55,758 nucleotides of DNA, taken from positions 1-55,758 of the forward strand of contig JAUCBJ010001900.1 of NCBI GenBank assembly GCA_032718475.1, written 5' to 3'. Numbering within the stretch: position 1 is the first letter of the stretch; each line of letters begins with the position of its first letter. The DNA is from Nemertoderma westbladi. Taxonomy: Eukaryota > Animalia > Xenacoelomorpha. Position numbers and translations under genes: made by a program. Positions 8,441-55,758 of this stretch are shown in pieces. Below the pieces are notes generated by a model, which was given only the letters and a program-made list of their open reading frames with translations, ran no database searches and was not told the DNA's origin.

Positions 8441-8770
8441 CGTGAATTTGGAATACCATATAGTATTGATACATTATGATAAATTTATATTGCATCCGTA
8501 ATAACTATAGTACAAATTAATTATATAGCTGCAATTTATTATTACATTACGTTCTGTCCTTGTATCTACCGTACTTGTTGTATTGTTCTTGTCCTTTTTG
8601 TACTGCTGTACTGTACTATAATATCTACGTACTGTACATTCTTTCATATTTATAATTTACCCCTGTCAACGATAAATAAACTGTAAGTAGCACGATTGCA
8701 TGAAATCTAATCAGATATTATGGTACCGATATTATGTTCCTATTTAGCATGTGAAATTAATGTCAACTAT

Positions 8771-9929
8771 TGTTTGCGCTTTTAAGACCTTTGACAGTTT
8801 AACCTGCCAAATTAGGATGTCTTTTAGATGATAGATAGTCTTTAGCTTATGACGAATATTTGATACACTACATTAGCCGAAGCCAGTCTATGCGCAATCA
8901 TTCACCCGCTGGATATACCCGGGAGACTGAATTCGGAAGCTTAATGATTGATGGTGTAAGCCTACTGTATTATTCGACTGATCGTAATATATAATCTCTG
9001 ACAAATATTATTCACTTTCGGGAAATATTAACAGTTCCTTTAGGACGTGGCGCTCTAAATATGTAAACAGAGTTATGACTTAAACTAGACACAACGAAAT
9101 GGCTATAGATTAACGTATATGGCGCATTCTTTAGGAGATGCTTTGTTATCAGTTACAATCATACACAATGCTGCACAATACTGCACACTAATCTGCCGAC
9201 CTTCACTAAATTTAGTCACGTATAAAGAGAGCAACATACAATTTATGTAGGGCCTATGAAATAGCATTAGATTCACTTCAAACCACTTGACATAGGTCGC
9301 AATCATTTATATGTAACCGGTCTCTCTAACCTTTAGTATATCAAGAAGATTGGGGTGTCTGACTATTGATCAGTATTCCGATATAATATTTCATCAACAA
9401 ATATAATGAATAACCGACAGTAAAAGCAGTAATATTAGTAAGATTTGTATAATATAGTATGGATTGGTTTGATATGTTAACTCGATAACAGATATACGTT
9501 CTATAATTAAGCCTACTAATGTTAAGCTAAAGACTGAAACACGGAGGTGCCAAAAGCCGGTGTTCTTAGGCTCTGGGCAAAAACATAACACTGAATTCCT
9601 GAGTTTCTGTATCCAACCTCCAACACAGAGACAAAAAACGCTCTGATTGGTCGACCGTACAAAGAGAGAACAAAGAACAAAGAAATGTTCGACGTGGCAA
9701 TATCAGCTGTTAGCCGTCGTCATGGTAGCGACACTGTTTTCAAGAGTATCCAGCTTATTGCGTCACGAAATTGCGGATTAATGTCCTCTAAAGTACACAT
9801 ACAGAAGAAATGACTTTTATGTCCTCTAAAACACCAATACAGTAAGGACACGGCCCTTTTATGCCTGGTAAACCAACTACAGAGTACTTTACGGGAAAAT
9901 AACCGGTTAATTACGCAAAAGCTTTTACA
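8771..9929 (-). repeat. 3' LTR (1159 bp)
   Basis: Direct repeat of 23748-24905. Only one substitution (9743/24720) and one 1-bp indel (~9780) noticed by eye. Confidence 0.97.
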
Positions 9930-9940
9930 CCGCTCCCAGA
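9930..9940 (-). promoter_or_regulatory. Short polypurine-tract-like plus-strand primer site (TGGGAGCGG|TGTAA)
   Basis: G-rich run abutting the 3' LTR on the element's sense strand. Confidence 0.55.
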
Positions 9941-10007
9941 AAATGGGATCTAAGTCTATAAAATATAACAAATCACAGTTTCTAAAATATAAAAATACTC
10001 TAAACAG

Positions 10008-11981
10008 TTAGTCTTTCTTACGTGGACGGCGTTTACGCAATTTTTTGAGGCTAGCAAGAGTCCTTTTCTCTTTAGGGCGAGCCACTTTGCTAGGAGGGCT
10101 GTAACTCCTGGGTGAAGGGTGCAATACAATTGCATCAGAAGGTTTCGGATTGCGATCGGTGTATCCGCCGGTCGAGGTACCTGGTTGATCGATATCAACT
10201 TCAGTGGAGCGAGGTCTAACGGTCTTTAGGGCGCATCTTAGGACAGCAGCTCCTACTGGTCCTTGACGGGTCGTCTGGACAACGGCGGTAGGCGGACCGT
10301 GAGTGGTGAGAAACTTCCTTGGTTTAATAGTTCTTTCCAGCTCGCGTTCTCGGGCTCGATATTCGTAGGGCCGTCGAGATACTTCCTGTAACTCAGGGTG
10401 CGAGTTGATAAATAAATCGCCATACTCAGGGTCTTGACGGATATAATTGATCAAATGGTATGAAGTAATATCGTTAGGATTGACGTTCCTAAGGTATTTT
10501 CGAACGAATTTGGTGGAAATACACTCACCAACACGCTTCATTAGTTCGTAACTCGGTGTGCGTGTTTTTTGTTCCACAGACGCGAATAAATAAGGATGGA
10601 ACGCGTAAACTCCCTCGTAAGAGCGTCCAGGGTAGTATCGATGACGGGACTCACAATGTAAATCCGCAATCGCTTCCCAAGCTCGGATGTAGCGCAGGGT
10701 AATCATTTCATCTACGCTCTCTAAATCGTGATTAAAGGGGCAATTATAACTGGCATGTCCTTTAAGTTGACAGTGGTGGCATTGAGTCATAAATTGGGGG
10801 CAGACTGCAAAAATATGAGAGCTATTAAGTCTGCAATACGCACAATATATCTCCATCATCGGTTGTTCGTGGAAATAGGAGCAGGGTACGTCTGAGTCCA
10901 TAGGGGTGAAATGGTCTCTCGATGCGCATAATCGACAACGTTTTCGAGAAACATAGTTAGCGTGTCGATAATCGTATGCGGTGAGACATTGTGGACCTTG
11001 ATACCACTCTAAGACGTAGTCGTTATCGCTGCTCCGGGGCGCTGTAGGCTGAATCGCTTCAGCTTCTAAGCATATTGGTTCGTCTTCCAATTGCATAGCT
11101 GAGATAGGTGCGGCTGTCTCCGCAAGCGGACCCACTGTCTGAACTTCGACGACAGAATAACCCGTGGGTATTCGGGGTCTTTGTATAACAGATGAATGTA
11201 AGTTCTGTATACAAACGTCCTGAAAAAGGGCAAATCCCGCGCTGTTTAGCTTCTCCGCCGCTGAGTCTCTCAGGCTGAGTTTGGTCAGAGCGCGGTCCTT
11301 GAACTGACTATCAACGTTACGGAACGGAGTCAGAAAGTGCCTGAAACATTCAAAGCGGATGAATTTATTGTGTTCATCTAACTTGGCGAGTTTGGTTCCA
11401 AGTATTAAGGGATGGGCGCGTATGGTACGTCTGCACACATCGGCTAGCCAACCGGCAAGTGCTGCGTTTTCAAAGATCGTGTATATAGCTAAGGAGGGAC
11501 GAAGTGGAACACTCATAAAGCTATACACGGCGCCAGGTGCAGTCAATGGTCCATCAAAGTATAAACGAGAATAATGATCTCCGTATACTTGTTGGTAATT
11601 TATAGGATTTCCAACCTTGAAATTCCATCCGTATTCTTGAAAGGCAAGATGTCCGATGGAGGTTCGTTGTACTTTAGTAATTCCGCTGGGTGTATTGGCA
11701 TACATAGTGCGGAAGAAACCTCGGCCTTCTGCCCAAGGAGCAATCAGCTGAGTATCAACGAAGGGGTATGGAATGTTCTCCATATTCCGAAAGTCGTTCT
11801 GTAGGTCTCCATAAACAGCTGAGCCGATTTTAAGGATTCTTTCGTTAAACAACATCTCGAGCACGGGTTGGGGTAACATCGATCCATCGATACCCATGGC
11901 CGGTTTGCGCTCGGTGTCGGTGACGTAACGTTTGGTCGTAACGTCGGTTTGTCCGTTAGTCAGTACCTTCCAGAATGTCAC
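10008..11981 (-). CDS. Accessory ORF3 of the BEL element: DnaQ/DEDDy 3'-5' exonuclease-like N-terminus, Cys/His zinc knuckles and a basic C-terminal tail
   Basis: 657-codon open frame. Motifs DTERKP, LPQPVLEMLFNERILKIGSAVYGD, FVDTQLIA, SIGHLA and PLRPSLAIYTIFE parallel the WRN/RNase D/EXD family. CHHCQLKGHASYNC is a canonical CCHC knuckle. KKLRKRRPRKK is NLS-like. True start is uncertain. Confidence 0.7.
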   Translation of the reverse strand: MTFWKVLTNGQTDVTTKRYVTDTERKPAMGIDGSMLPQPVLEMLFNERILKIGSAVYGDLQNDFRNMENIPYPFVDTQLIAPWAEGRGFFRTMYANTPSGITKVQRTSIGHLAFQEYGWNFKVGNPINYQQVYGDHYSRLYFDGPLTAPGAVYSFMSVPLRPSLAIYTIFENAALAGWLADVCRRTIRAHPLILGTKLAKLDEHNKFIRFECFRHFLTPFRNVDSQFKDRALTKLSLRDSAAEKLNSAGFALFQDVCIQNLHSSVIQRPRIPTGYSVVEVQTVGPLAETAAPISAMQLEDEPICLEAEAIQPTAPRSSDNDYVLEWYQGPQCLTAYDYRHANYVSRKRCRLCASRDHFTPMDSDVPCSYFHEQPMMEIYCAYCRLNSSHIFAVCPQFMTQCHHCQLKGHASYNCPFNHDLESVDEMITLRYIRAWEAIADLHCESRHRYYPGRSYEGVYAFHPYLFASVEQKTRTPSYELMKRVGECISTKFVRKYLRNVNPNDITSYHLINYIRQDPEYGDLFINSHPELQEVSRRPYEYRARERELERTIKPRKFLTTHGPPTAVVQTTRQGPVGAAVLRCALKTVRPRSTEVDIDQPGTSTGGYTDRNPKPSDAIVLHPSPRSYSPPSKVARPKEKRTLASLKKLRKRRPRKKD

Positions 11982-13243
11982 TGTGTTTATTATGTATCCT
12001 TGGATACTAGCAGTGCGCTGCTTATTCCCTATGCTATTTAATGGTGCAAGCTTTCTATTGTTCTTTTAACTCACTTCTAATTCTAGCGTGGTTGTTGCCA
12101 TGGTGACATTATGGAAAGCTAGCGGTAGAATTAGGGTAACTCTCATGCATACAGATCTGGGATGCTATTTAATAGTAATTCTTTAATGGTCAATATCCCC
12201 TTTATACATGATTCTATGAATTTTATCGGCTATTGACTATACATTGGAGATTCTCGCACACAAATACACTTACTAGAGTGAATCTCCGCTCCCATGATCT
12301 ATTAATTAATGGAATTTTGGGAATGTTATAAATTGTATAAAATGACAATTTATTAAATTCATTGAAATATCTGAATTTAAATTTATTCCCGTAAATTTTA
12401 TTATTTAATGTTAAGTAGACACAATTTTATTCCAGAACGTGTCTGGGGACTTGGATCCTTGGTTCGAGGAATTTTGTCCTTTTAAGAGTATCGGTAAGTG
12501 CTACGATATCTTAATCGACTAGAATTTTAAAGGATCTGCTATTTGACAGATTTTGTAAATATTAATAATTAATATTTAGGATGGGCACCAGTTTATTCCA
12601 GAACTTGTCTGGGGACGTTAACCACTGATTCTAGAATTTTGTCTTTCAAGTATATCGGTGGGTGCCGCGATATCTTAATCTACTAGAATTACAGATGGTC
12701 AAAGGGTTTAACAGATTTATTTGCGTTGTACGCTACTGTTAAAGGGACATCACGCTACTATATGTATTATTTAATATACGGTATGAGAGCAATATCGCAT
12801 GAAGCAATGTCAGTGTGAAGAGGCAAGTCGTTTCCAAGGTCTACCCAGAGCTTGGTTTAGCCGAGACACGAGGATCTGAACTTTGCATTCCTAATACTCT
12901 GCCTACCAATAATACTTGAATATAGTAGTGGCTTTATTGTACTTTAATAAGTACGGACATTTCATCTTACTGTAGTCATGTATTTATAATGTAATACGGA
13001 CAGTAAGGAAGGAGAAAAAGAATTATTTCTCGCCGTCGCACTAAATATATAATACAAGTAATTACGTAATAAATGCGAATATATTGCACTAATCTACTAA
13101 ATGTTCGCTAAAATAACATGTTACTAAATAAAATTAAATAAAACGATTAAAATAAAATTACATAATAATACATACATAAATATAAAAGAATAAAACAAAT
13201 ACAAATATAAAATAATATGGTCACACACCCACTCCAGCCGTTG

Positions 13244-15517
13244 TTAAGTTGGGGAGTCCCTAGATGTTTGTCGGATTAGGGAGGTGGTCGTGGGAAGAGT
13301 ATCTTGTCTCCCATAGTTTCCGGAGAGTTCTCTGTCTCTTTCCAGTAAACATAAGCGACCAACTGGGCGATTGAGCTGCTGCGTCTCGAAGACAATTCCC
13401 GGTTTCTTGAAGTTACGTCGCATGACGACGAGTTCTACCGATCGCACCAAACCGTCTTCCGAGATGTGAGTCTCGATTATACGACCTGTCTGCCACCGCT
13501 TACGTGGAAGATCTACATCCACAATAAGAACCATGTCTCCAGCGCTGACGTTTTCTTGCTGCGCAAACCACTTAGTTCGAAGTTGTAGCGTGGGCAGATA
13601 ATGTTTTTCGAAATGGTCAGCGAAACGACGGGATAACAACTGCATGAGTTGCCAAGTTTGTCGGCAGTATTCGTCTCCGTCTGTGATTTCCGATTGTGGG
13701 AGCATGGCTACAGGTTTCTTCAGTAGGAAGTGCGCGGGTGTTAGCGCTTCCAGGGAATCGGGACTCGATGAGACTGGCATAAGCGGTCTCTCGTTGAGAT
13801 AGGCGGCGATTTCTTCCATTAACGTCCGCAAAAGTTCGTCGGTGAGATAAGCGCGGCAAGGCACTATAAAATGAAATGCTGTCTTCACACTTCTTATTAA
13901 TCTCTCCCAACTTCCTCCCCACCAAGGGGCGTCGGCGGCGTTGAAGGTCCAACTAGACGCTGTTACTCGTAGTTGGTCGTCCACCTGTCTTTGGTTCCAA
14001 TCTTTGACGTAAGCTTTGATTTCATTGTTGGCACCAATGAAGTTTGTTCCCTTATCAGATCTCATCGTGTTACTAGTGCCAAAGCGAGCGATCTGTCGTC
14101 GTAAGCTTAATAGAAAGCTGTTGGTAGATAAATCGTTCACCATATCGAGATGGATGGCTCTACAAGTCATACAAACAAAGATTACACACCATCTCTTGAC
14201 TATAGTCCTAGCACGATATACTTCAATAGGGCCAAATAAATCCACACCGGTATTAGTAAAGGGTGGTTCATAAAAGCTTACTCGTTCCCTAGGTAATTCT
14301 GCCTCTCGCTGTGTTAAAGGCCTACTGAATGCTTTCCTACAGGGTATACAGTTCCTAAGAACTTGGTTCAGAGCTCTACGGGGTTTATAAAAATAATAGC
14401 GAGTTCGAATTTCGCTAAGAACTCGTTCTCTACCAGCATGATAAAGTTTGCTGTGAACATCTACAATCATCTTGACTTGTATTTCAAGATTTCTAATGAG
14501 TATGGGGAACTTAGTATCAAAGGATAATGGGGCATTCGTTAACCTTCCTCCAACACGTATCAACCCATCTATCATTGTGCTAGAGAAACGATCCCTTAAG
14601 CGCATCTGTGGATTTCTCAACAACAGGAAATACTTATCGGAATCTTCATAGCATTGCAAGAGTCTCAACATCTGCTTGTTGGTTTCTTCATGCTCCTGAT
14701 AACTGATCTTCTCATTCAGAAACTTGTCGGGTAGCTTATATTTGGGAAGATCTTTAATAACATGGACCTGCACTGATGTGATTGGAGCGGTATCACCCTT
14801 TGCGTTCATCCCAGAGTAGTGATGGTGAAAACATCTCTTTAAATATGTAACGGCCTTACAGAGCCGATTCCAGGAACTGTAGTGATGTATCGCTCTCTGC
14901 AGAAGAGGTGAGAGTCCTTGCGAGACGTCTGGTATGCCAGATTTCCACTCCTTATCACGGATTTCCACAACGGGTTTATTTGTGGCTGTGGGTTTCTGAT
15001 CCAAATCGTTTTCTCCGGAAGTATGTAGTACAGACAGATCTACTGTGGGTTTGAATAACTTAGATTTACTCGCCTGAGTTTTAGGTTTGACTTTCTCCGC
15101 TCCCTTGGCCTGTCTAATCTCTGCTGTAGTAAGATGAGGAGGCCATTCTTCTTCTTCTTTGTAGAGGAAGTCGGGTCCACCTAACCAGTCTGGAGTGTCG
15201 ACAAGTTCTTGTGGAGTTGCTCCCCTGGAGGCGATGTCCGCTGGATTAATCGTTCCGGGGCAATGTCTCCATTGATCCATCGTCGTGCGACTGAGTATAA
15301 TAGCTACTCTGTTGGTAATGAAGACGCTGAACTGACAGACTTCATTGGTTATATACTCCAACACGAGTAAAGCGTCGGTCCAATAGACAGTTTTCTCCAG
15401 GGGATAGTCGATCTGTTCTGTTACATTCCGGCCGATGGCTGTAGCATATAGAGCCGCTTTTAACTCCGCTCGAGGAACTTTCAACTTGTTGTTTATCAAT
15501 GCCTTAGAGGTAATGCC
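13244..15517 (-). CDS. BEL pol, distal part: C-terminal RNase H, integrase zinc finger, DDE core and C-terminal domain; in frame with the upstream ORF across one TAA
   Basis: VPRAELKAA, YWTDALLVL, NPADIASRG, H..H..CIPC, TGVDLFGP, SDKGTNF, WERLIRSVK, WQTGRI. Confidence 0.93.
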   Translation of the reverse strand, partial: GITSKALINNKLKVPRAELKAALYATAIGRNVTEQIDYPLEKTVYWTDALLVLEYITNEVCQFSVFITNRVAIILSRTTMDQWRHCPGTINPADIASRGATPQELVDTPDWLGGPDFLYKEEEEWPPHLTTAEIRQAKGAEKVKPKTQASKSKLFKPTVDLSVLHTSGENDLDQKPTATNKPVVEIRDKEWKSGIPDVSQGLSPLLQRAIHHYSSWNRLCKAVTYLKRCFHHHYSGMNAKGDTAPITSVQVHVIKDLPKYKLPDKFLNEKISYQEHEETNKQMLRLLQCYEDSDKYFLLLRNPQMRLRDRFSSTMIDGLIRVGGRLTNAPLSFDTKFPILIRNLEIQVKMIVDVHSKLYHAGRERVLSEIRTRYYFYKPRRALNQVLRNCIPCRKAFSRPLTQREAELPRERVSFYEPPFTNTGVDLFGPIEVYRARTIVKRWCVIFVCMTCRAIHLDMVNDLSTNSFLLSLRRQIARFGTSNTMRSDKGTNFIGANNEIKAYVKDWNQRQVDDQLRVTASSWTFNAADAPWWGGSWERLIRSVKTAFHFIVPCRAYLTDELLRTLMEEIAAYLNERPLMPVSSSPDSLEALTPAHFLLKKPVAMLPQSEITDGDEYCRQTWQLMQLLSRRFADHFEKHYLPTLQLRTKWFAQQENVSAGDMVLIVDVDLPRKRWQTGRIIETHISEDGLVRSVELVVMRRNFKKPGIVFETQQLNRPVGRLCLLERDRELSGNYGRQDTLPTTTSLIRQTSRDSPT

Positions 15518-18500
15518 TTAGGCGACTTTGATTCCGTCCGGAGTTTCCACCCTTAGGTAGGCTACTATACCTATTCCCATATCGCTGGCGTCTCCAAACA
15601 CATGGAGTTGATATGAATACGTAGGGAGAACATGACCAAAATATGAACGGGAAATTATAAAGTTTTTGATGGCTGGTAGAGAATCTTCCCATTTCATCCA
15701 CTTCTTTAATAATTCTCCCTTAAGTGGATCGTCCCATGAGTGGTTTTCAAGCCACATTTGTTGTACTAAACTCCGAGCAATCAATATAACTGGGCTAATA
15801 AATCCCAATGGATCGAAATAAGTGCTCAGGATACTTAAACAAATCCGTTTAGTCCGAACTGGATTATCTCGCTGTTTTAGTTGGAAAAACAGGATATCTC
15901 TTTCGGTGTCCCATTTCAAACCAAGGGTCTTAGTTTCTGGGAGATCATCCTTTATTAGATCTAGGTCTTTTGCTCCTCGATCTTCTACCGGGATCGCCTC
16001 CAGAAACTCACGGGAGTTGCTGGTGAATTTAGTTAATCGAAATCCACCTTGCTTTAAGCATTCTACCGTACCTTTAGCGACCTCAATGGCTTCTTCGACT
16101 GATGGAAGGGACTTTAGATTATCGTCCATGTAGATGTCTCGTTTGATGTTGTCGATCACCTCTTTAGAGAAGGCGTCTCGGTTGTCATTCGCAGTGGTAC
16201 GCACCACGGAACAGGCGTTTGAAGGGCTCGAGATTATCCCAAAAGCTTGGATGGTCATCCAGTACTCCACCGGTTTCTTGTTGAGGTCTCCTTCAGGCCA
16301 CCACAGAAATCGTAGGCTATCTCGATCCCTATCCAGCGCTTTGACTTGTAAGAACATGCCTTCTATATCTGAGGCGAAAGCAATGGAATATTGTCTTAAT
16401 CTTAATAGTATTCCCAACAAGGATTGGAGTAAGTTGGGTCCGGGTAACAATTCAGAATTAAGAGATTGGCCCATATAAAGGGCGGAACCGTCAAACACCA
16501 CTCGTACTTCATGGGGTTTACCGGGTTTGGGAATGTAATGGTGAGTTAAATAATACGTTCTCTCAGTTATAGGTGTTTCTTCCGGTACTAGCTCCGCATA
16601 TCCCTTGCTAATAAACTTCTTCAACTGCGTTTGATACATTTCTTTAGCTGAAGAATTTGCCGTAAGGCGTCGATGTAGTTGAGCAATTCTTTTCTCCGCC
16701 AAAGGTCTGTTGTTAATGAACTTTGGTTCTCGCTTTCGGAAGGGAAGTCCGATCTCATACCTACCTTGATCTTTAAGAAAACGAGTAGTTGTCGCTTGGA
16801 TCTGCTTGGCTCTTTCTTCCTCCACCGATAGGGCCTTATCGTAGGAGTTGGGCTCTACAGCCTCTTGAGTAAAGAATCTTACGGCGTGTTCATCCCGAGT
16901 CTTGGCATTATAACGTTCAATGACGTCATTAAGCTCGTCGTTATAGTCGTCTCGCTCTGATGGGAGAAGGAGTTGACATAAGTTCACTTGATTTTGCCAA
17001 GTCTCGCTTTCCTTAAGGAGATCGATGGCATTCTCCTCATCGAAGAGTTGATGTATATCGTCGTTGTCTGAGGAGTATGGAGTTCCCTCAGTTGGATCGT
17101 CTAACTCACTGTTCTCAACTTCCCATTCTCGCACTTGATATACCTGATCTTTCGGTAATCTTTCCATGAGAGTTCTACGGGAAGGGCCAGTAAAGTACCA
17201 ACCCACTCTAGTTCTTACCGCATAAGGTTGTAATGGTTGCGGTTGAGCGGGCCGTTTCTCCAATGTCTCGAGCGCTTCATGCGCGTTTTGACCGATGAGT
17301 ATTTGCACTCCAGGGTAATCGGTGTCGAATCTAGGTATTTCCATCTGCTGGGCAAAATCGTCCTCGTCCCAGTTATAAGGTTCCACTTGAGTGGTAGCGA
17401 AGTTCTTTATTGCCACCATTTTCACTGACCTTATGCTATGTTCTCCTAATTCGTCCTGGGGGGTGGACAACGCACCTACATAATAATCCGCCGTTACTGT
17501 AGATTTCCAAACCTGCATAATTCCTGACATGTTTAGCTTAGTTCGGAACTTGGGTTGTCCAGCAAATATGTCTTCGGCTAGCTCTTTGTCGATGAATGTT
17601 CCTGTACTACCGGAGTCAAGGAGGGCGTTCACTACATAACTCCTTTTTGGTCCGTGGACCCTTACCTGTACCACAGGAAATTCTCTAATCCCTACATTGG
17701 AAGTTGGCGCTTTCCAAAATGGTTGTCGATCAGAAGTAGTTAGAGTGAGGTCACTTTCTGTATCTTTTTCATAAGTGAGCGCTCGATACACTGCGGTATT
17801 TATCATGTAACAGGATTCGTTTTCGTCGGAGAACTCGTCCGTATAGAATCCTTCCATCTCAGATTGATCAGTGTCGTTCACATCACTGAATTGGACATGT
17901 AGTTCGGAATCACTTACCTGACTCGGACTATTTCGCTCGAATTCAGTGTGCAACAAGATATGATGTTTTGCACCGCACTTTGCACACCTTGTGTCGGAGT
18001 AACAGGTTCGTCGTTGGTGTCCTTGTCTGAGGCAATTATAACACAACCGCTTATCCCACATGACATCACGTCTATCCTTAAAGGATTTCTTCAAGAATTC
18101 ATCACACCCACTCAAGCGATGGGGCCCGTCGCACAATGCACATTTGGGTTTGATGTTACTTACTTTAACCTGTGTTGTGTTGCGCACACTTGTTCTTTCC
18201 TCGGGCTTTCTTCCATGAATTCTCTTAGGAGACGTAGGAGGAGTTGTTACCTGTTCTCTCCTGTCGCTGGTTCGAGACTTAGATTTACTTACGTCTTTCC
18301 TCGATTTATTGACATAATAAGATCCTTCGGTGTTCCCGTCACATAGCGCACATTTCGGTTTGATGTTACTTACCTTACTTTGAGTAACATTGTGTACACT
18401 TGTTTTTTCTTCGGGCTTTCTCACCTGAATTCTCTTAGGAGACGTAGGAGGAGTTTTTCTTACCTGTTCTCTCCTGTCATTGGTTCGAGACTTGAATTTA

Positions 18501-21500
18501 CTTACCTGATCTTTAGGCATTTTATTGACGTAATAAGATCTGTCAGTGTCTTTCCCGCTATCCTCTCCTTGAGAAGTCTGGCTTTCGCCGTCGTCTGTAT
18601 AACACACTGGTGTTACCTTTCTCCTAGAGACGGGTTTTTCACTTACCTTGTTTTCCGGTGTCTTCTCTCTGGACAGTTTTAGGAGCTGTAATTTCACTTC
18701 TCCATCTAGGAATGACATGAGATCAGCCATGGTAGGGTCTCGTCGTTGTTGTTCCATCATATATAACACTTTCTTATCCCAGCGTGTACCTACTCCACCC
18801 TTCGGTAAAGTAGAAGCCACGGCTCCAATAACCATAGAACTCCGATATTCATGAGACTTACCTAACCAATCTAATTGTCTACAGATCTCTTGAATCTCAT
18901 CGGAAAACTCTATTATCCCGCTGCTAATGAACTTTCGGGGCGCTACTAATTTTGCATACAAATATTTAGCTATGTTATTCCTATTACCATACCTGATGTT
19001 TAGTGTATCCCAAACTTGTCTTAATCCGTCTGGATGTCTAATAAACTTTAACGCCATTAACTTGGGAGATCCTTCCAAGCACTCGATGAGGAATCTAAGT
19101 TTCTCTCCATTAGATAGTACAGAGTTCTGTATGTTATCTTTATAATATTCATTAAAAGGTAACCATTTCATCTCATCTCCATTGAACTTGACTATCTCTC
19201 CCACCTTTACCGCTTGCCGGGCTTCGGTTCTAGCCATTTGACGCGTAAAACTTTCTTGGGCCATCGTGTTATTTAATATCGAGTTATCGGTATATAAATT
19301 TCTCGGATTATGATCAGGTCTATAGGGAATGTCATTATCAACAGGTCTATAATTACCCTTAATAGGGTTCACTATAGGAGTTTCTACTTCGCTAGCAGTA
19401 TAGATGCGTGTAGGCTCCACACCTTGCGCATGAGATACTTCAGACCTAACAGGTTGACACATTGTTACAGGGGGTGGTGGTATACCCCTTTGTGTATTTA
19501 CTAATTTATCGCGTTCTAGCGCGATACTTTGCTGCACTTCTTGCAACTCTAACCTACTTTCCCTTACTGTGCCCTTGAATTGCTGAACGGTCTCCTGCAT
19601 CTGTCCGAGCAGGAGATCCATCCCCCGTCGTCCCTCATCCACCCATTCGACCGCCGAAGCGGGATTCGCCAACGTTGTAGCGGGCGGACGAGGGACAACG
19701 GGCGACAAATCATGAATATTTCGCTCGGAGTCCAGGACCTGAACTGTCTCATGGGCTGTTCTACTGGGCACAGGTAGCTTAGTGCTGTGCAGAGGGAATT
19801 TAGAGGTAGGTTCAGGGAGCACAGGTGTCTCTATCACCGAAGGGGTGATTTCAAGAACAGGCCTAATTATTTCAGGCTCATCTACTATAGTAGGGAGTCT
19901 TTCTATTGTAATTATTTGGTCTGTGGGTTCTGTACTACCTGAGTTGGTGTTATTTAGTTGCCTTCTAACAGCTGGAGGCAAATCAGGCAATTTCTGACGG
20001 TGGGATGTTCTTTTACGTCTGCTTAGACGAGATCTATTTCCTTTGCCTTCAGTATCGGTGGTATCGCCTTCCTCAGATGATGTATATCCCTGTCTTTTGG
20101 GAGTAGATCGATTCATCATCTGCATATTACTAGCTGTTAACTGTTTATTTATGCAGTCTTGATTCTCCTGAATATTTTCCAGTTCTAATTGGGCGATCTC
20201 TTCAGCCGCTATCCGTTCTGCTTCTGCCGCTGCCATTGCCGCTTTTCTTTCCATTTCGGCTGCTTTTCTTTTCGCTTCTGCCTCTGCCGCTGCCTCTGCC
20301 GCTTTTCTTTCCATTTCGGCTGCTTTACTTTCCTCTTCGGCTGCTTTCCTTTCCGCTTCGGCAGCTGCTACTGCTGCTTTCTTTCTGTCTTCTATACGTT
20401 TTTTCTTTACTTGTTCTTCTTGGACTCGTGTGATGCGGAGTTGTTCATCAAATTTAGCCTGGTTCGCAGCCCTCATTTCCACATCGATGGCATCCAACAC
20501 ACGCTGAGTTCCTTCACTATTAGGGCTAAGTCCATCTAACCTTCTCCTCAACTCTTCATCACCTAAAAAACGTTGATAGTCTGACAGATAGATGTCAATG
20601 GCATCCCTCTTATGCGGCTTCTCTGCCGTCACTTCACTTTCCACTTGGGAAATAGTAGCGTCTGTTGATTCTCCATGGGTTGAGCGCTCCTCCAGCTGAG
20701 CTTTCAACTGAGCCGTTCCTTGAACCTGGAGACTCACCCGTTGAAACCAAGTCTTTACGGCAACTTGCAACGACGTGTCTTGTCTTCTTTTAGAAGCCTC
20801 CTCAAAGGCCGATAAGATTAGTCTGATTCGCAGAATTCTTTCTCTAACTTGATAAAGCAGTTGTCCCTGCACTTGAGGTCCTTGTGGTTGTTGAAACAGT
20901 TGTCCTTTTACTCGCTCCATAGAGCTGAAGAATCCCTGTGCGTATCCGGCTGCGGACCTCTTCCACACAGCTGGATCGATGGTTTCCTTGGCTACTCCCA
21001 TCCGGTGTATGTCTTCCCAGGCAGCTTCTGATAAATCAAACGGGAGTCCGGGTCCGGGGAAGTTCCATTGCGACTCGACAATAGACTTCAGTTCTTCCCT
21101 CGTGTATCCCGCATAACTATCTTTAGTTGATCGCTGACTTCTCGCCCAATCGATCTGGTGTTCTTCCACCGCGATCAATATCCTAGTGAGTACGGCTGCA
21201 GGAAGGATGAGAAGGGGATCCGAATAAACCGCATCCGTCATCTTTGCTCCGCGCTCGGGTGTCAGCTCTACAGTATCCTCACTACTGGAGCTGTCGGGCC
21301 ACTGAGAAATAAGTTCTTGGCTCGCGGGTTGTTGCTGTTCCGCTGCTTCTTGGTCCCGCTTGACCTGAGCTCGAGTGCCTATGATAGACCTATGGTGTTG
21401 GACCAGCCTAGGTTCTGATATTACTACTGGAGGGTTGACCTTCCTCACAGTGGGAGGTGAACTGAACTTAGGACTAGACGGTTCTACACCTCTATCTGAG

Positions 21501-21556
21501 TCGCAGATAGTTACATCTAATAAACTGTCTGACAGGTTCTGCTTAGTATCAGACAT
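15518..21556 (-). CDS. BEL gag-protease-RT-RNase H (N-terminal part) polyprotein
   Basis: FNGDEMKWLPF gag domain, three zinc knuckles (CALCDGPH..C, CYNCLRQGH..C, CAKCGAKHH..H), protease LLDSGS, RT VRVVFD / SDIEGMF / YMDD, RNase H LHVFGDAS. First ATG at 21556. Confidence 0.95.
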   Translation of the reverse strand: MSDTKQNLSDSLLDVTICDSDRGVEPSSPKFSSPPTVRKVNPPVVISEPRLVQHHRSIIGTRAQVKRDQEAAEQQQPASQELISQWPDSSSSEDTVELTPERGAKMTDAVYSDPLLILPAAVLTRILIAVEEHQIDWARSQRSTKDSYAGYTREELKSIVESQWNFPGPGLPFDLSEAAWEDIHRMGVAKETIDPAVWKRSAAGYAQGFFSSMERVKGQLFQQPQGPQVQGQLLYQVRERILRIRLILSAFEEASKRRQDTSLQVAVKTWFQRVSLQVQGTAQLKAQLEERSTHGESTDATISQVESEVTAEKPHKRDAIDIYLSDYQRFLGDEELRRRLDGLSPNSEGTQRVLDAIDVEMRAANQAKFDEQLRITRVQEEQVKKKRIEDRKKAAVAAAEAERKAAEEESKAAEMERKAAEAAAEAEAKRKAAEMERKAAMAAAEAERIAAEEIAQLELENIQENQDCINKQLTASNMQMMNRSTPKRQGYTSSEEGDTTDTEGKGNRSRLSRRKRTSHRQKLPDLPPAVRRQLNNTNSGSTEPTDQIITIERLPTIVDEPEIIRPVLEITPSVIETPVLPEPTSKFPLHSTKLPVPSRTAHETVQVLDSERNIHDLSPVVPRPPATTLANPASAVEWVDEGRRGMDLLLGQMQETVQQFKGTVRESRLELQEVQQSIALERDKLVNTQRGIPPPPVTMCQPVRSEVSHAQGVEPTRIYTASEVETPIVNPIKGNYRPVDNDIPYRPDHNPRNLYTDNSILNNTMAQESFTRQMARTEARQAVKVGEIVKFNGDEMKWLPFNEYYKDNIQNSVLSNGEKLRFLIECLEGSPKLMALKFIRHPDGLRQVWDTLNIRYGNRNNIAKYLYAKLVAPRKFISSGIIEFSDEIQEICRQLDWLGKSHEYRSSMVIGAVASTLPKGGVGTRWDKKVLYMMEQQRRDPTMADLMSFLDGEVKLQLLKLSREKTPENKVSEKPVSRRKVTPVCYTDDGESQTSQGEDSGKDTDRSYYVNKMPKDQVSKFKSRTNDRREQVRKTPPTSPKRIQVRKPEEKTSVHNVTQSKVSNIKPKCALCDGNTEGSYYVNKSRKDVSKSKSRTSDRREQVTTPPTSPKRIHGRKPEERTSVRNTTQVKVSNIKPKCALCDGPHRLSGCDEFLKKSFKDRRDVMWDKRLCYNCLRQGHQRRTCYSDTRCAKCGAKHHILLHTEFERNSPSQVSDSELHVQFSDVNDTDQSEMEGFYTDEFSDENESCYMINTAVYRALTYEKDTESDLTLTTSDRQPFWKAPTSNVGIREFPVVQVRVHGPKRSYVVNALLDSGSTGTFIDKELAEDIFAGQPKFRTKLNMSGIMQVWKSTVTADYYVGALSTPQDELGEHSIRSVKMVAIKNFATTQVEPYNWDEDDFAQQMEIPRFDTDYPGVQILIGQNAHEALETLEKRPAQPQPLQPYAVRTRVGWYFTGPSRRTLMERLPKDQVYQVREWEVENSELDDPTEGTPYSSDNDDIHQLFDEENAIDLLKESETWQNQVNLCQLLLPSERDDYNDELNDVIERYNAKTRDEHAVRFFTQEAVEPNSYDKALSVEEERAKQIQATTTRFLKDQGRYEIGLPFRKREPKFINNRPLAEKRIAQLHRRLTANSSAKEMYQTQLKKFISKGYAELVPEETPITERTYYLTHHYIPKPGKPHEVRVVFDGSALYMGQSLNSELLPGPNLLQSLLGILLRLRQYSIAFASDIEGMFLQVKALDRDRDSLRFLWWPEGDLNKKPVEYWMTIQAFGIISSPSNACSVVRTTANDNRDAFSKEVIDNIKRDIYMDDNLKSLPSVEEAIEVAKGTVECLKQGGFRLTKFTSNSREFLEAIPVEDRGAKDLDLIKDDLPETKTLGLKWDTERDILFFQLKQRDNPVRTKRICLSILSTYFDPLGFISPVILIARSLVQQMWLENHSWDDPLKGELLKKWMKWEDSLPAIKNFIISRSYFGHVLPTYSYQLHVFGDASDMGIGIVAYLRVETPDGIKVA

Positions 21557-22889
21557 GTTTGTGTGCACAGTTGAATGCCTACTGCTATATTACAGTCTAA
21601 GCAAGTCTAGTAATTCAGTATTAACTGCTAGCCTAGTAATTAATTACCGATACTGCTACTCAGTGTAGCGTGATATATATAATATTAGAATACCGGTATG
21701 CTTATAGTATATATAAGTATTATTAGTAACTAGAATTAATTACAGAATACCTGTATGATTTCAGCCTAAATTTATATATATAATAGGCCTATCGTGAATA
21801 CCGGTATACAGCTTACACTTATAATGTATATATATAAGTATAATTACAGACTAGAATTAATTACAGAATACCGGTATAATTTCAGCCTAAATTTATAGAA
21901 ATAAAGATAATAAGCCTATTGTAAATACCGGTATATCAATTATTTTAGAATAATTGAATTTCTGAATTTTAAGGGTTACTTGGTTACTTTAACCTACTTT
22001 ATTACCGTTATTTAAGCAGTAGTCCAACTGATATTGAGACCTAATTGTTGTATGGCAGGCCTACTATTTATAAATCGTTTGAGTTGATTTATAATATATA
22101 TATACCCGTTTAATGGGTTTTGTCAATGTTTGAAATAATGTTATTATTTCTGGGGGAGTTACTACACATAAGCTGTGCGCTCTCAGTGGAGTGCTACTTG
22201 TTAGACACTAAAACAAATAATTCTAATTTACCTCAGTTACTTAATACTATGAATTACGTACAATTCAGGTTGAGATTACAATCTCTAAATAAACACAAAA
22301 ATTTAATTACAAATACACAAATACGAATTTTTAGGGTAATTTTACAAGAAGTCTACTAACCAGCCTAACAAAGGGTTAGAATATCTGGTTATTACAACAG
22401 ACAGGATACTACGGTATTTGAAAATAATAAGTAGTAGTAAATATACTGCGTTGTCCAGATAGGAAAATACCACCGCCTGATGACCTATAACCGTATCGCT
22501 ATAGGTACTACGTTATGTATCACGGAGTGTTCCTACCTAGAGATTAATTACCGCGGTCTACCAGAACCAACGTGCCTATTAACCACTTTACAACACAAAT
22601 ATACTGCCCACACACTAATCACCTTCGGAAAGCACTGTACACTAAACCCTAAATTAGGTACAAGTACTTGTATAACAAATAATCAGTAGTTAAAAATACT
22701 TGAACAGTTAAAAGAACCACGGTATCTGCCGGAGTGACCAAAGCATAAAATCTCCAGTCTTTACCTACGCCGAGCAGCCCTGATGTAGTACCGGGGTTAG
22801 TTTAACTATAACGGTATGTATAACAAACACAATTACTGTAGGAATAAACTTGGGGATATGAATGTTGCGAATAGTCGCATAAACTCTGA

Positions 22890-23468
22890 ATAATAAATAT
22901 TACGCTACGCGTACAGACTATTCAAACAAAATGCAGACCAAATACTGACAGACTACTATCAAGCCTAAACAAACTACGGTATATGCAGACTCCGAAATGA
23001 TTAGTTAGTATGCATTCTAACCTAGTAGTACGACTTATTCTTTCACAGGGGGTTTACCTCACAGCACTTGAAGCCCCTACGTTCCCAACTAGCACTTTAT
23101 CGGACAGATGCTCTACACACACCGAAATTTCCTCAAACCCAACAACAGCCAGACAACTATCCAGCCTACAAATTATCTAAATAAAATTATACGCTACCCG
23201 TACAGACTATACAAACAAAGTACAGACCAAACGATGGCAGACTACTATCAAGCCCAAATACACTACAGTATATGCAGACTCCGAAATGATTAGTTAGTAT
23301 GCGTTCTAACCCAGTAGTACGACTTATTCTTTCACAGGGGGTTTACCTCACAGCACTTGAAGCCCCTACTTTCCTAACTAGCACTTTATCGGACAGATGC
23401 TCTACACACACTGCAATCCGTTCAGACTTAACAACAGTTAGACAACAGTCAAGCCTACAAATTATCTG
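22890..23468. repeat. Two-copy 289-bp tandem duplication in the element's 5' leader
   Basis: ACGCTAC...CAGACTA blocks start at 22902 and 23191. Confidence 0.85.
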
Positions 23469-23736
23469 TACAATCTGAGCAGGCTTACACGCCTTCTGCT
23501 CAATACTGGCCTACAAATAAATAAAACTGACAGAAATAAGTAAGCTCCAAAAGAAACAAGGGGTGTACAGTCCCTAATCTCTTAAACAGCCTACCGGTAT
23601 ACAATTTCACAATCGAATAATACTGCTGTACCTGTACTGCTGTAGGTACCGGTCCGGATGATCAGGCAGTCAGGCCTACTGGTTACCGGTCGACCGGTAC
23701 TTTCGACTAGATTGCTTACACCGCAATCTAGAAGCA

Positions 23737-23747
23737 ATATCTGTTAT
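23737..23747 (-). promoter_or_regulatory. PBS position (ATAACAGATAT); non-tRNA type, complementary to LTR 24462-24472
   Basis: Directly follows the 5' LTR. No TGG within the next >100 nt. Exact 11-nt reverse complement lies inside the LTR. Confidence 0.55.
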
Positions 23748-24905
23748 TGTTTGCGCTTTTAAGACCTTTGACAGTTTAACCTGCCAAATTAGGATGTCTT
23801 TTAGATGATAGATAGTCTTTAGCTTATGACGAATATTTGATACACTACATTAGCCGAAGCCAGTCTATGCGCAATCATTCACCCGCTGGATATACCCGGG
23901 AGACTGAATTCGGAAGCTTAATGATTGATGGTGTAAGCCTACTGTATTATTCGACTGATCGTAATATATAATCTCTGACAAATATTATTCACTTTCGGGA
24001 AATATTAACAGTTCCTTTAGGACGTGGCGCTCTAAATATGTAAACAGAGTTATGACTTAAACTAGACACAACGAAATGGCTATAGATTAACGTATATGGC
24101 GCATTCTTTAGGAGATGCTTTGTTATCAGTTACAATCATACACAATGCTGCACAATACTGCACACTAATCTGCCGACCTTCACTAAATTTAGTCACGTAT
24201 AAAGAGAGCAACATACAATTTATGTAGGGCCTATGAAATAGCATTAGATTCACTTCAAACCACTTGACATAGGTCGCAATCATTTATATGTAACCGGTCT
24301 CTCTAACCTTTAGTATATCAAGAAGATTGGGGTGTCTGACTATTGATCAGTATTCCGATATAATATTTCATCAACAAATATAATGAATAACCGACAGTAA
24401 AAGCAGTAATATTAGTAAGATTTGTATAATATAGTATGGATTGGTTTGATATGTTAACTCGATAACAGATATACGTTCTATAATTAAGCCTACTAATGTT
24501 AAGCTAAAGACTGAAACACGGAGGTGCCAAAAGCCGGTGTTCTTAGGCTCTGGGCAAAAACATAACACTGAATTCCTGAGTTTCTGTATCCAACCTCCAA
24601 CACAGAGACAAAAAACGCTCTGATTGGTCGACCGTACAAAGAGAGAACAAAGAACAAAGAAATGTTCGACGTGGCAATATCAGCTGTTAGCCGTCGTCAT
24701 GGTAGCGACACTGTTTTCATGAGTATCCAGCTTATTGCGTCACGAAATTGCGGATTATGTCCTCTAAAGTACACATACAGAAGAAATGACTTTTATGTCC
24801 TCTAAAACACCAATACAGTAAGGACACGGCCCTTTTATGCCTGGTAAACCAACTACAGAGTACTTTACGGGAAAATAACCGGTTAATTACGCAAAAGCTT
24901 TTACA
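23748..24905 (-). repeat. 5' LTR (1158 bp)
   Basis: Sense strand begins TGTAAAAGC and ends GCAAACA. CCAAT-like box at ~24621-24627. Confidence 0.97.
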
Positions 24906-26671
24906 ACTATGTATTTCTCAACTGTGTTTGCCTGAATGTACGTGGTGATTAGCGTAATGGGTCTTGCCGGCCAATTACCATCTACATTCTTCACAATCAG
25001 TGAGACAGGGGGGGGGGGGGGGAACTCGACGTAAAACCCGCCTTGGCGAATTAATATCCCGCCTCAATGTTAAATTCTCAATTTAGGGACAGGTTTAGGA
25101 GCAGGTTACAGTGGCAGGGTATTTTAACCAAAACAATAAACTAAATACAATAGAACAGGTTACAGTTTTATTTTTGAGAGTAATCAGCTGTTATTTGTGT
25201 CGAATTTCCCCTGAAGAGGGATGAATTTTTATTGCGTCCAGTTTCCCCCCCTATCTGCAATCAGTAGGCCACTGGCCACAAATGCATGCAACTCAACCCA
25301 ACTTAATTTGGCGCATATTATATTATATTAAATTCGAATTGAACTTGCATGCACATTAATACTGTAATATCTTGTATTGCGTAGTATTGTAGTAAATTGT
25401 TGTAAATAAATAAAAATAAAAAGTAAAAAGTTTTATTTTGGCCTATAGGAAAAGTAGCGTAGGTAGATAATGGATTATAATGTCTTATAGATAGGCCTAA
25501 ATATTGTGTCGGATTCGGGTTGGCTGCCAGCTACTTGTGATCGAATTACGACTGTACGATTCCACTCTTGAGGACGTGATTGACGTGTGTACCCTGAAAA
25601 GGTTTCCGTCTGCGGATTTCGACGACGAAGACGGTGATGAAAGTAGTTCGCGGAGTTGCTTCCCGTTCCGTCCCCATCCTCGATCAGTGTTTCTCGACAC
25701 ACTGATGTCCGTCATCCCCTCTCCATACGCCTGCCTCGTCACACCCTCTGTTGTAGATGCGGGGTTGTGGTATAACAACTGAACAATGGACATGGTTACG
25801 TATTCGCATGGTCCGAAATTGAAGAGATAGTTAAAGGTTTCTGCAAGTTTCAATTCTTAATGCTCCGAAGAATGGGTTTAATTATCTGTTTATTCCGGGT
25901 GGATCGTCCGGAGAAACTGGCGACTTATCTCTTACCCATTATGATCCCTTATTTGTTCCGGGGATGATGCCTACAAATCTTCAACGACAACGACTATTTT
26001 CCATTATCGACCCACCCCCTAACAGGGTCAGTTCGCTAACCGGCTATACAGTAGGCTCCGCCAACTTTGTGTTTGTGGTTCGCGTTCGCCCTGCAAGTCC
26101 CACAGTCAGACAGTACATCCAGTATTAGGTGTGTACTTTTACTTTGTATTGCTGTATTGCGGTAGTGGCAGTAAGGTAAGCCCACTTCATCTATACTTCA
26201 AGTCAAAGTCCACAGATCGTATCAGCATAAATTTTACCCTGTTAGTGTTATTATAGGAACTGGAACATTCTGATTAGGCCTAATACCTACTTTAGGCCTA
26301 ACTAGCAATATACTGATATAGTCTTAAGCTACAGTACCTGTGTCATTTTAATAATTAATAATATAAATCCATAACATTTTATTGTATTTTTTCAATTTTT
26401 TTAGTAGCCTAATAATTAATTGTTCTTTTTTTATTCCTATGCATATCACCTTAATTTTGTTTTCTTTGTTCTTTTTATTCAATTGCAGTTTGTTTATTAT
26501 ACGTTTTTATATTGATCCTCGATCTTCAAGTGTAAGTATCCACTCAGGATCTACAAGTATACACCAGCAACCATTGCCTGGGTTATCTTCTCCCTCCTTA
26601 TCCAATTATTGCCAGTTTCTATTTTTATGTATTTCAAATTCAATTAATTTTTGGGCTTGTCGTGCAGTAAT

Positions 26672-27011: not shown

Positions 27012-27189
27012 AGTAATACGGTATGGAGTGTCTATTATATATTACATATTACAATTACAATTATTACAACTTATTTGTAATTTGTAGGCCTATTGTGCAA
27101 TGGAGGCTATCTCCATTCTGTCTGCAGTGTAACTTGGCGTTGGCGTCACCTTCGATCTTGCAATCTACATGTAAAATAAATTGATAATA

Positions 27190-28987
27190 ATGCCAAGCCT
27201 TGTAAATACAAGTGTAGCGGTAACCATAGGGTGTGTGGCTGGGGCCGTAACCTTGATAGTTTACTATCGACATTCCCTCTTACAAGTTGTACAGATCGGT
27301 GTTGGGAAAGGATAAAGTACTTCGTAGTCCGATAACTCGCTACACTCATCTCCAACCCGTTGAGATACAAACATACATCGCTAGAGATTGTGTCACCTTA
27401 CAGCGATTGGGGGAACAATTACAAAATGATTTAACAAATAGAAACAGCGATACCGATACCGGTACCGGTACTTACCCAGTTGTAAGTCTAGATTGCGAAT
27501 GGGTTGGAAATAACAAAGTTGCTCTTCTTCAATTATGTACGTCGTCTGGTGGCTGTTATTTATTCCGATTGTCCGAGTTGGATGGCTTGTCCGACTTCGC
27601 AGAATCAACCTGCCATTTATCGCAAGTTCTAGCCAATCCCGAGATATTAAAGGTGGGCGTTGGTATTGACGACGATGTTATTCGTCTCCGTAACGATTAC
27701 GGTTTAATCTGCCGCGGTTGGTTTGACCTCCGCTTGGCGGCGTTGACGATGGCCAACGAAGGTCTACTGAACCTTTTAAGCAGAGAAACCCGACTTGGTT
27801 TGAAAGGGTTGACGGAGTTCTTCTGTGATTATACGATGCCAAAGTCGAAACGAATTGCAACAAGTGATTGGGAAGCTGTTGAACTGACTGACGTGCAAGT
27901 TGAATACGCTTCTCAGGACGCCGTAGCTGGAATAAACATACTAATGGCGGTACTTATACATCGGTTTAACGGCAGTATTCCGTTGGATTGGCAGGAAATA
28001 TTCGAATTAGTAACTCCAATATGCGAACTTATTAATCCCGGAAAATTTATTCGTCAATTAGTTAAAAAGGGGGATAATTCGAAGGGTAGTAATAGCGGTC
28101 GCAAACTAAAGTCGGACATTAAGGTGTCGGATAATAGACACAAGGCTAGGCGGGGTTACAGCACCCGGAAGTCGGAACTTTATCGGAACACCGAGATCCG
28201 AGCCCCGGACGGGACGCTATTGTGCGTGTCGGACCGGCGGAAACTGGATTGGTACGTTAAGTACGGGCTGGGACGGGTCACCAACACCGAGCCGCTCACC
28301 GTTACGCTCAACTTCGAGCCCTCGGGTCGCCCCAACGACGAGTCCCAGCGGTATTACCTAACGGCCAAGGAGAACGAATGTTCCGTGTGCGGGGAACGGG
28401 AATCCTACGTGAGGAAGTACATAGTCCCGCGGGAGTACCGGCGTCACTTCCCGCACAGTATGAAGGACAACCTATCGCACGATGTTCTGCTCGTCTGCGT
28501 CGATTGTCATTGCGTTAGTAACTCGCACGATATGCGACTCAGGAAGAAACTCGAGTTGTTGTGCTCGGCTCCGATAAACCGAACTAACGGCGGCGACGAC
28601 CGTCGCAATGCAGCTGCCGCTAGAAGCGCAGCTAACGCGTTACTCAACGATAAAGTGAAACACAACCTTCCCGCCACCCGGGTAATTCATCTGGAAGGAA
28701 AACTAAAGAGTTACTTCGGTACCGAATGTATTTCGGACGATATTCTGTCCGAAGCGTCCGGACTGGGGTTGGATCAGCCTAGTAAATCTTCGGAATTTAG
28801 TCACGGACAGCGGGTTGTCAACTATTATATGAAGAGTGGATCGGACTCGGGGGGTTTATTGGGTCTAATTGACTTGGAGTTGTTGTGGAGGAATAACTTT
28901 CTGGAAACTATGAAGCCGCGGTTTCTACCCCCATTGTGGTCGGTCACTCACAACCACGAGCGACTAATAGCCAAGACGGTTGGTTGA
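27190..28987 (+). pseudogene. EXD2: EXD2 copy B, frameshifted by an 11-bp deletion after the N-terminal membrane anchor
   Basis: The frame from ATG 27190 stops after 41 codons. The downstream frame (27287-28987) is otherwise intact and near-identical to 46787-48589. Confidence 0.82.
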
Positions 28988-30746: not shown

Positions 30747-30820
30747 CTGAAAACAATCGAGATATATTACTATATATTACGAGATATATTATATCATAGA
30801 ATGTGTTCTAAAATGTTTTC

Positions 30821-34873: not shown

Positions 34874-35152
34874 ATCGATGGCCGGCGCATTTGGGTACTG
34901 GTAGTAGGTATTAAAGCCAACTGCGTCCACTGGGACAGTCTCGGGGAGGGTGGCTCCGGCCCCCAGACAGGTGTCGCTCGAGTAGACCACGAGGCCGCCC
35001 CTGTCTGCCTCGAACTCCAACCGGACTCCGGGGATACATAGCAGTAGAGTCTGCACGTCCCGGAATCCCAGCTCCTCCAACGATAAACGTTGGTCAGTGC
35101 ACTCGAAGTAGGTCTCTATGAAGTTGCTCGTTTCTATGCCACCGGGGACCGC
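34862..35152 (-). CDS. TDRD5: TDRD5-like copy B, exon 2 (rest of the fourth LOTUS domain plus linker)
   Basis: Acceptor CTAG|GCG and donor GAG|GTAGGG; 291 nt, phase 0-0. [15 protein letters not shown]...[10 protein letters not shown] continues exon 1 (IQRIIK). Confidence 0.82.
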
Positions 35153-37247: not shown

Positions 37248-37304
37248 TGTCTGATTGTTACCGATAGTCCTACTGATTGTCACTGTCTGCCTGCTAGGCT
37301 GCTA

Positions 37305-50960: not shown

Positions 50961-51034
50961 CTGAAAACAATCGAGATATATTACTATATATTACGAGATA
51001 TATTATATCATAGAATGTGTTCTAAAATGTTTTC

Positions 51035-55740: not shown

Positions 55741-55758
55741 CTAGCATTGGGATAAAGA

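Follow-up and report, generated by a model that had tools for sequence, protein, structure and literature searches.

A selected accessory gene with a probable DEDDy exonuclease fold and zinc knuckles in a BEL/Pao retrotransposon of Nemertoderma westbladi

Third open reading frames (ORF3s) encoding DEDDy exonuclease-like proteins with a DEED motif are known from the bdelloid rotifer elements Juno and Vesta and from Athena/Terminons, as described in passages of PMC5408684, PMC6431247 and PMC6338049. Here we describe an ORF3 that is very probably a DEDDy-fold accessory gene, found in a 55,758-nucleotide stretch of Nemertoderma westbladi (GenBank contig JAUCBJ010001900.1; hereafter the window, meaning the whole stretch). 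Its host is not a Juno or Vesta element but a BEL/Pao long terminal repeat (LTR) retrotransposon, identified by its LTR ends, target-site duplication, Pao-specific Pfam domains and domain order. It shares with the rotifer ORF3s, as the text of PMC5408684 presents them, an RNase D/WRN-like, non-env reading frame after pol, the lack of a transmembrane segment or coiled coil, and an altered acidic motif. The motif itself differs: in place of DEED, the unnamed homologue P0002 has D-E-D-E, and the ORF3 in the window retains the ExoII aspartate and the ExoIII glutamate. The new gene also carries three CCHC knuckles and a conserved C-terminal stretch, whereas only a Cys-His-Cys motif is mentioned for Vesta2/5 in the text of PMC5408684. 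In addition, it is under purifying selection; the text of the rotifer paper reports such analysis for env and GDSL ORF3s only, and neutrality was found there (PMC5408684). Rotifer ORF3 sequences did not turn up in general protein searches. We know of no function or sign of selection reported for the rotifer DEDDy ORF3s since 2017.

Outside the rotifers, the closest architecture is that of the trypanosome RNase D TbRND, which trims the 3' ends of guide RNAs while its knuckles hold the RNA, a combination that its authors call very unusual (passages of PMC7797062). Both proteins have a single DEDD domain followed by tandem CCHC knuckles, which in ORF3 are predicted to bind RNA, and TbRND is among the Foldseek matches of the P0002 model (E 8.5e-5). 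TbRND is, however, a cellular, mitochondrial guide-RNA trimmer with four knuckles near the Exo domain and a canonical DEDD motif, according to the same text (PMC7797062), whereas ORF3 has three knuckles about 165 residues from the Exo domain and resides on a mobile element. The shared architecture is likely to be convergent. By analogy with TbRND, and given the knuckles, the substrate of the ORF3 product is probably RNA. The PF01612 group (EXD2/WRN, EXD1, Egalitarian, Nibbler/Mut-7) resembles ORF3 in the fold of the N-terminal domain, but identity is below 20% and the HNH-like part of EXD2, the MUT7-C domain and the helicase are absent from ORF3. As far as tested, ORF3 is not an orthologue of any of these proteins. 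Dada DNA transposases also bring a DnaQ-like exonuclease onto a transposon; there, as passages of PMC3706591 describe, the DEDDy domain lies within a DDE transposase of a DNA transposon and keeps all four DEDD residues.

What is new here is the host superfamily, the knuckle-bearing architecture, the evidence of selection and the adjacent candidate self-priming site. This extends the DEDDy ORF3 arrangement to a second LTR superfamily and adds a probable RNA-binding module that points at a substrate. No report of a DEDDy ORF3 in BEL/Pao, or of one with knuckles, was found in the open-access literature searched, and two surveys of BEL/Pao elements (PMC3118150, PMC8556966) do not use the word "exonuclease" in their main text. 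Such ORFs could still be present, without comment, in Repbase or in the element files that accompany PMC3118150.

Fold and conservation of ORF3

ORF3 occupies 10008-12065 of the minus strand, the strand of pol, and lies 1.2 kb past pol (which ends at 13244) and 78 bp short of the 3' LTR. The frame has 685 codons from stop to stop; its first ATG is codon 57 (11897), giving 629 residues. Its features and those of the spacer before it are as follows.

11948-13243, minus: AT-rich non-coding spacer ahead of ORF3, the final 118 bases of which are open in the window copy only
12391-12526 and 12555-12690, minus: two direct repeats of about 135 bp in the spacer
11931-11947, minus: break in ORF3, a 17-nt filler with the start codon and ExoI region missing
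11436-11930, minus: the two-thirds of the DEDDy-type exonuclease domain left in the window copy, codons 46-210
10740-10937, minus: three CCHC-type zinc knuckles, C377-C442
10596-10690, minus: conserved stretch past the knuckles (E464, A467, R476, G485), belonging to no named family
10008-10090, minus: basic tail and stop codon, from the sequence

A previous sequence-only reading had taken this for an intact, 657-codon cargo frame between pol and the 3' LTR, in the sense of pol and unlike env, with a DnaQ-like DEDDy domain and zinc knuckles. Its placement, sense and non-env character agree with the coordinates and hydropathy, and all the motifs it quoted are present in the sequence. The open frame stands at 685 codons; 657 is the count from a splice acceptor proposed at 11981, and the frame is not intact, as described in the next section. 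No hydrophobic segment was found in the window copy, which lacks the N-terminus (top 19-residue Kyte-Doolittle mean 1.19), or in full-length P0002 (best 19-residue hydropathy 1.24). An env identity was rejected because hydropathy reveals no signal peptide or transmembrane anchor in either protein.

A HMMER protein search over 1.84 billion representatives, with ORF3 as query, gave two matches at E<=0.001, both singletons without names. P0002 (648 residues, E 1e-6) matches ORF3 residues 38-211 and P0003 (633 residues, E 2.4e-5) matches residues 310-497. In all three proteins the N-terminal domain is joined by a variable linker to three CCHC knuckles, and the conserved stretch comes after these. 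The local alignment of ORF3 with P0002 scores 146, whereas none of 1000 shuffles scored above 59.

The N-terminal part of ORF3 is well supported as a WRN/EXD/RNase D-type DEDDy domain, its fold being predicted through a model of P0002. The alignment used to fold the P0002 domain held just its two natural relatives, and the model is fair at residues 31-147 and poor past that (mean pLDDT 49.8). With this model, Foldseek placed EXD2 at the top (E 1.1e-6), followed by Egalitarian, RICE1, trypanosome and E. coli RNase D, EXD1, Nibbler, WRN, NrnC and Rrp6. VIA gave Z 11.7 against EXD2, with an rmsd of 3.2-4.0 over 113-117 aligned residues. An ESM Atlas feature search with ORF3 residues 20-290 pointed to PF01612 (0.92), with 29 of the 30 hits in that set. 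These profile and structure searches bear out the DnaQ-like fold proposed earlier.

P0002 is acidic at all four motif positions (D62-x-E64, D130 and Y229-x3-E233), which makes it a testable enzyme. Its D130, Y229 and E233 align with ORF3 D87 (11805-11807), Y195 (11481-11483) and E199 (11469-11471), and D87 also aligns to the EXD2 motif KVGVGIDD. The earlier assignments of ExoII and of ExoIII as YxxxE agree with the homologue alignment. That of ExoI does not: the DTE at codons 50-52 cannot be ExoI because it aligns to P0002 residues 94-96, 32 residues beyond D62-x-E64. In P0003, ExoI reads D-F-K, so the ExoI glutamate is gone and the protein looks catalytically dead.

The C-terminal part is recognizable by other means. 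Pfam finds only the zinc knuckle in ORF3, below threshold, and an Atlas search with the knuckle module returned zf-CCHC leads only, all under 0.9. The P0002 knuckles match those of HIV nucleocapsid at E 1e-4 and show a weak match to Air2 (E 0.06). The positions E464, A467, R476 and G485 are common to P0002, both modules of P0003 and a metagenome locus, L002. Two metagenome loci were recovered from 141 pattern matches: L001 (3685 bp) encodes P0003 and shows no reverse transcriptase (RT), and L002 holds a 904-codon ORF with a single knuckle module and no exonuclease domain. The knuckle-plus-E..A..R..G unit occurs twice in P0003 (L001 79-2025) and once on L002 (615-3329), and may be an unnamed mobile module. 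In P0003 the ExoI glutamate is lost while the knuckle module is kept and doubled, which suggests that RNA binding is the function that stays constant.

Further searches added no relatives. A word-seeded protein search with ORF3 found no new relative among 7997 candidates; the same kind of search found nothing with an alignment as query and only P0002 itself with P0002 residues 25-290. No relative was found in viral contigs with ORF3, P0002 or the knuckle alignment as query, or in the genome contigs searched. A BFVD structure search returned generic DnaQ-type viral proteins only.

Other copies of ORF3 were viewed through contigs from public sequencing runs. The stretch is present in six of the seven listed runs, under three species labels; contigs were aligned from runs X3, X4, X5 and X6 on 8700-15600 and from X1, X3, X4 and X5 on 11380-12260. 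Each listed variant was classed against the codon of the window copy, so that change is measured against one copy among variants that share ancestry. The listed variants are the best supported 40 of 150 on 11380-12260 and 40 of 1537 on 8700-15600. In the exonuclease part (11380-11930), 22 of the 25 listed variants are synonymous, against an expected fraction of 0.23-0.30 (p<=2e-9; rough dN/dS 0.04-0.06), and 23 lie at third positions. Synonymous changes make up 7/11 of those listed in the C-half of ORF3 and 16/20 in pol. When the ORF3 frame is extended into the non-coding stretch upstream, they make up 4/7. Among the listed variants, Asp87 varies only silently. Eight of the nine ORF3-internal contig pieces listed are gap-free, some of them only about 80% alike. 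The exonuclease domain is under strong purifying selection in the family. ORF3 is thus a working gene under constraint similar to that on integrase, which implies that it matters to the element. The run contigs and the synonymous bias agree in showing that the frame is kept among family members, and ORF3 is a real, selected, non-env accessory gene of the BEL/Pao family.

Several results weigh against parts of this account. For the window ORF3 there is no Pfam exonuclease match, and searches of PDB sequences with ORF3 and with an alignment as query gave nothing under E 0.3. The profile match to EXD2 is weak (hhalign E 0.07), the Atlas match shares 164 features, below the 170 typical of same-family hits, and a single-sequence structure model of ORF3 was useless (pLDDT 32). 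In the P0002 model, pLDDT is below 50 from model residue 128 onward, the ExoIII part; ExoIII is YxxxE and not YxxxD in both ORF3 and P0002, and its assignment comes from the alignment and not from the model. The selection counts come from the best-supported variants, which are not independent, and give a rough dN/dS only. Single contigs also have deletions inside ORF3, at 11006-11128 (X4) and 11423-11611 (X3), as expected of decayed copies. Finally, BLAST aligns GQ (codons 38-39), upstream of the break described below, with P0002 at equal spacing; a match of two residues cannot outweigh the read evidence for the break.

The broken copy in the window

Contigs of other copies leave the window copy at two points, which contradicts the earlier view of the frame as intact. 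All four runs aligned there diverge at 11948 (39, 4, 1 and 2 listed contigs in X1, X3, X4 and X5) and three of the four at 11930 (7, 3 and 1 in X3, X4 and X5; none among the rows shown for X1). The loose ends reach 151 and 124 letters, and no listed contig piece spans the gap between 11930 and 11948. The filler at 11931-11947 is a patchwork of short copies of its two flanks, as polymerase-theta end joining would be expected to leave; at this place other copies have a longer and different sequence.

Codons 1-39 (11948-12065) are non-coding in the family, because all seven indels listed in 11380-12260 fall within 11961-12060, with none in 11380-11947, and because codon 16 is a stop variant in nearly all depth in all four runs. 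P0002 residues 1-92 have no match in 11900-13300. No fitting D-x-E occurs in 11931-13243 in any minus frame, the single hit sitting between stops. The ExoI D-x-E is absent from the window copy, its region having been lost at 11931-11947. A deletion with a 17-nt filler has therefore deprived the window copy of its start codon and of the N-terminal third of the domain, ExoI included, and upstream of the break the frame is open by chance. This ORF3 copy would be inactive, to judge from the residues lost; it marks the family rather than a working gene.

The same deletion accounts for the short ExoI-ExoII spacing remarked on in the sequence-only reading, and splicing was rejected as its cause. The splice acceptor suggested near 11981 lies inside the non-coding stretch, with indels at 11982, 11985 and 11986. 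An ATG at 12101 followed by GTGAGT was also considered as a conserved first exon and rejected, as in X1 about 60% of depth differs at the G and about a third at the GT. No run known to be RNA was listed as containing the stretch; X5, taken for RNA by guess only, also covers the spacer and so bears on neither transcription nor splicing, and the run contigs, which are no reliable guide to splicing, list no GT-AG joint.

Possible roles

In intact copies, ORF3 is predicted to encode a 3'-5' exonuclease of the RNase D/EXD type with three zinc knuckles attached, which may be catalytically active and may be expressed separately from a sub-genomic RNA. The knuckles would grip single-stranded RNA, and the exonuclease would shorten, from their 3' ends, the host small-RNA precursors or guides that target the element, which would blunt small-RNA silencing of the element. 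Taken as a whole, a conserved accessory exonuclease-knuckle gene that blunts host silencing is our best explanation, plausible and tentatively held; anti-silencing as the job of ORF3 is at most as plausible and is put forward with similar reserve. One point against it is that 2'-O-methylation makes mature piRNAs resistant to such enzymes. To our knowledge, few counter-defence proteins are known from animal retrotransposons.

A second oddity of the element, against which a priming role can be checked, is its primer-binding site.

23737-23747, minus: primer-binding site without TGG, abutting the LTR and exactly complementary over 11 nt to LTR positions 434-444
24462-24472, minus: candidate Tf1-like self-primer (predicted RNA 5' end)

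The 11 bases directly after the 5' LTR match the complement of LTR positions 434-444 at 11/11 positions. Such a match arose in 24 of 20,000 LTR shuffles and for 4 of 13,807 internal 11-mers. The layout makes this a candidate for Tf1-like self-priming in BEL/Pao, with the RNA 5' end predicted at LTR position 434. In Tf1 and Tj1, a primer site beside the LTR is likewise complementary to a stretch within it (passages of PMC4600332); those are Ty3/Gypsy-group elements with no exonuclease ORF3, whereas the present element is BEL/Pao and its RNA start is predicted only.

It is somewhat unlikely, and still the foremost alternative, that ORF3 acts in the element's own particle, trimming above all the self-primer, or else cDNA 3' ends. 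In the self-primer version, the RNA 5' end would pair over 11 nt, be cut slightly downstream and be chewed back to the duplex edge. The self-complementary primer site without TGG and the likeness of the knuckles to those of nucleocapsid both suit this role, and EXD2 and WRN also act on DNA; Tf1, on the other hand, self-primes with RT/RNase H alone. Processing of the 3' end of element RNA has been suggested by Rodriguez et al. for the rotifer proteins (text of PMC5408684), and the Dada DEDDy domains have been proposed to process transposition ends (text of PMC3706591). Against a particle role, DEDDy ORFs also occur on Terminons, without an LTR primer site, as passages of PMC5408684 and PMC6431247 describe, and the relative P0003 has a degenerate ExoI. 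Anti-silencing is favoured because DEDDy ORFs reside on elements lacking such a site and because P0003 has retained its knuckles despite losing the catalytic glutamate.

Like EXD1, Maelstrom or Egalitarian, ORF3 might instead be a dead RNA-binding adaptor, one that protects or carries element RNA or decoys a silencing factor. This is consistent with glutamate for aspartate at ExoIII, with the missing ExoI glutamate of P0003 and with the presence of Egalitarian and EXD1 among the fold matches; according to the text of PMC5408684, EXD1 and Maelstrom derive from DEDD proteins and are inactive but still bind RNA. However, P0002, the closest relative over the domain, is acidic at D62, E64, D130 and E233, and Asp87 is kept with silent change among copies. 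We regard the adaptor as unlikely.

A bolder combination is doubtful as a whole. It would make the element a self-priming BEL/Pao lineage with an active D-E-D-E exonuclease, Air2/nucleocapsid-like knuckles and an unnamed C-terminal module, which trims piRNA precursors or matures the self-primer. ORF3, P0002 and P0003 would then form an undescribed mobile exonuclease-knuckle family, and BEL/Pao would have its first anti-silencing or priming factor of the enzyme type.

Proofreading, with ORF3 assisting the reverse transcription of the 16-kb element, is the weakest of the three functions guessed at earlier and is very improbable. The length of 16,135 bp exceeds the 15-kb bound used for BEL/Pao in the text of PMC3118150, and nidovirus ExoN is a known parallel (PMC7968707). 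Nevertheless, copies differ by up to about 20%, spacer and leader account for part of the 16 kb, ORF3 forms a gene of its own rather than a fusion with RT, and equally long LTR elements lack such an enzyme as far as the text of PMC6431247 shows. Least credible of all is a neutral passenger captured by chance from a host gene such as the adjacent EXD2 genes: the window holds two of these and EXD2 is the top fold match, but capture from the neighbouring EXD2 was rejected for negligible sequence likeness (hhalign E 0.07; tblastn finds only the query itself) and strong synonymous bias, and ORF3 is present in runs under three species labels.

The element and its surroundings

8771-24905, minus: whole BEL/Pao LTR retrotransposon, 16,135 bp
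23748-24905, minus: 5' LTR, 1158 bp, TGTAAA...CAAACA
8771-9929, minus: 3' LTR, 1159 bp
24906-24910 and 8766-8770: 5-bp target-site duplication (ACTAT on the plus strand)
15518-21589, minus: gag-protease-RT-start of RNase H frame, 2023 codons
13244-15517, minus: rest of pol, with the RNase H end, integrase (H2C2, core) and DUF5641
9930-9937, minus: short purine-rich tract preceding the 3' LTR, a weak polypurine tract

The two LTRs both start with TGT and end with ACA and have two differences, one mismatch and one indel. The first long frame contains DUF1759 (E 9.5e-11), three gag Cys motifs, LDSG, YMDD and Peptidase_A17 (E 8.4e-26); DUF5641 (E 5.7e-20) and Integrase_H2C2 were also matched by Pfam. 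With the RNase H and integrase motifs seen in the sequence, these follow the BEL order of gag-PR-RT-RH-IN. The pol of the window copy is interrupted by one in-frame stop in the 15515-15520 region, where short indels at 15514 and 15519 distinguish other copies among the run contigs. Given LTRs that diverge at two sites, the 5-bp target-site duplication and this in-frame stop, the insertion is young but damaged.

The 5' leader is unusually long (2.1 kb, 21590-23736) and has direct repeats of 290 bp and 100 bp. These repeats and the two of about 135 bp in the spacer are possible promoter or packaging signals. In gag, a direct repeat of about 210 bp (18125-18549, 80%) duplicates the region of the first Cys motif. 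Contigs of X3, X4 and X5 join 13373 to 15090 with about 12 other letters between; this is a spread internal-deletion derivative without most of the RNase H end and integrase, and is probably non-autonomous.

The window around the element contains tandem units about 96% identical, at 1-2112, 27012-37304 and 46607-55758. They are made up of an intronless EXD2 gene on the plus strand and, on the minus strand, a gene with three LOTUS domains and a Tudor domain, which we take to be TDRD5/TDRD7-like and part of the piRNA pathway. The element occupies the gap where a LOTUS exon and an EXD2 copy stand head to head. The EXD2 copy at 46787-48589 is whole, and in that at 27190-28987 a frame change near 27290 splits off the N-terminal 35 residues. 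Long arrays of an 18-bp minisatellite lie inside the Tudor-gene units (30680-35000 and 50965-55600) and give spurious long ORFs in most frames. Nested inverted repeats at 44843-46414 and 49179-49754 have the appearance of a DNA transposon of the non-autonomous kind and of a palindromic miniature inverted-repeat transposable element.

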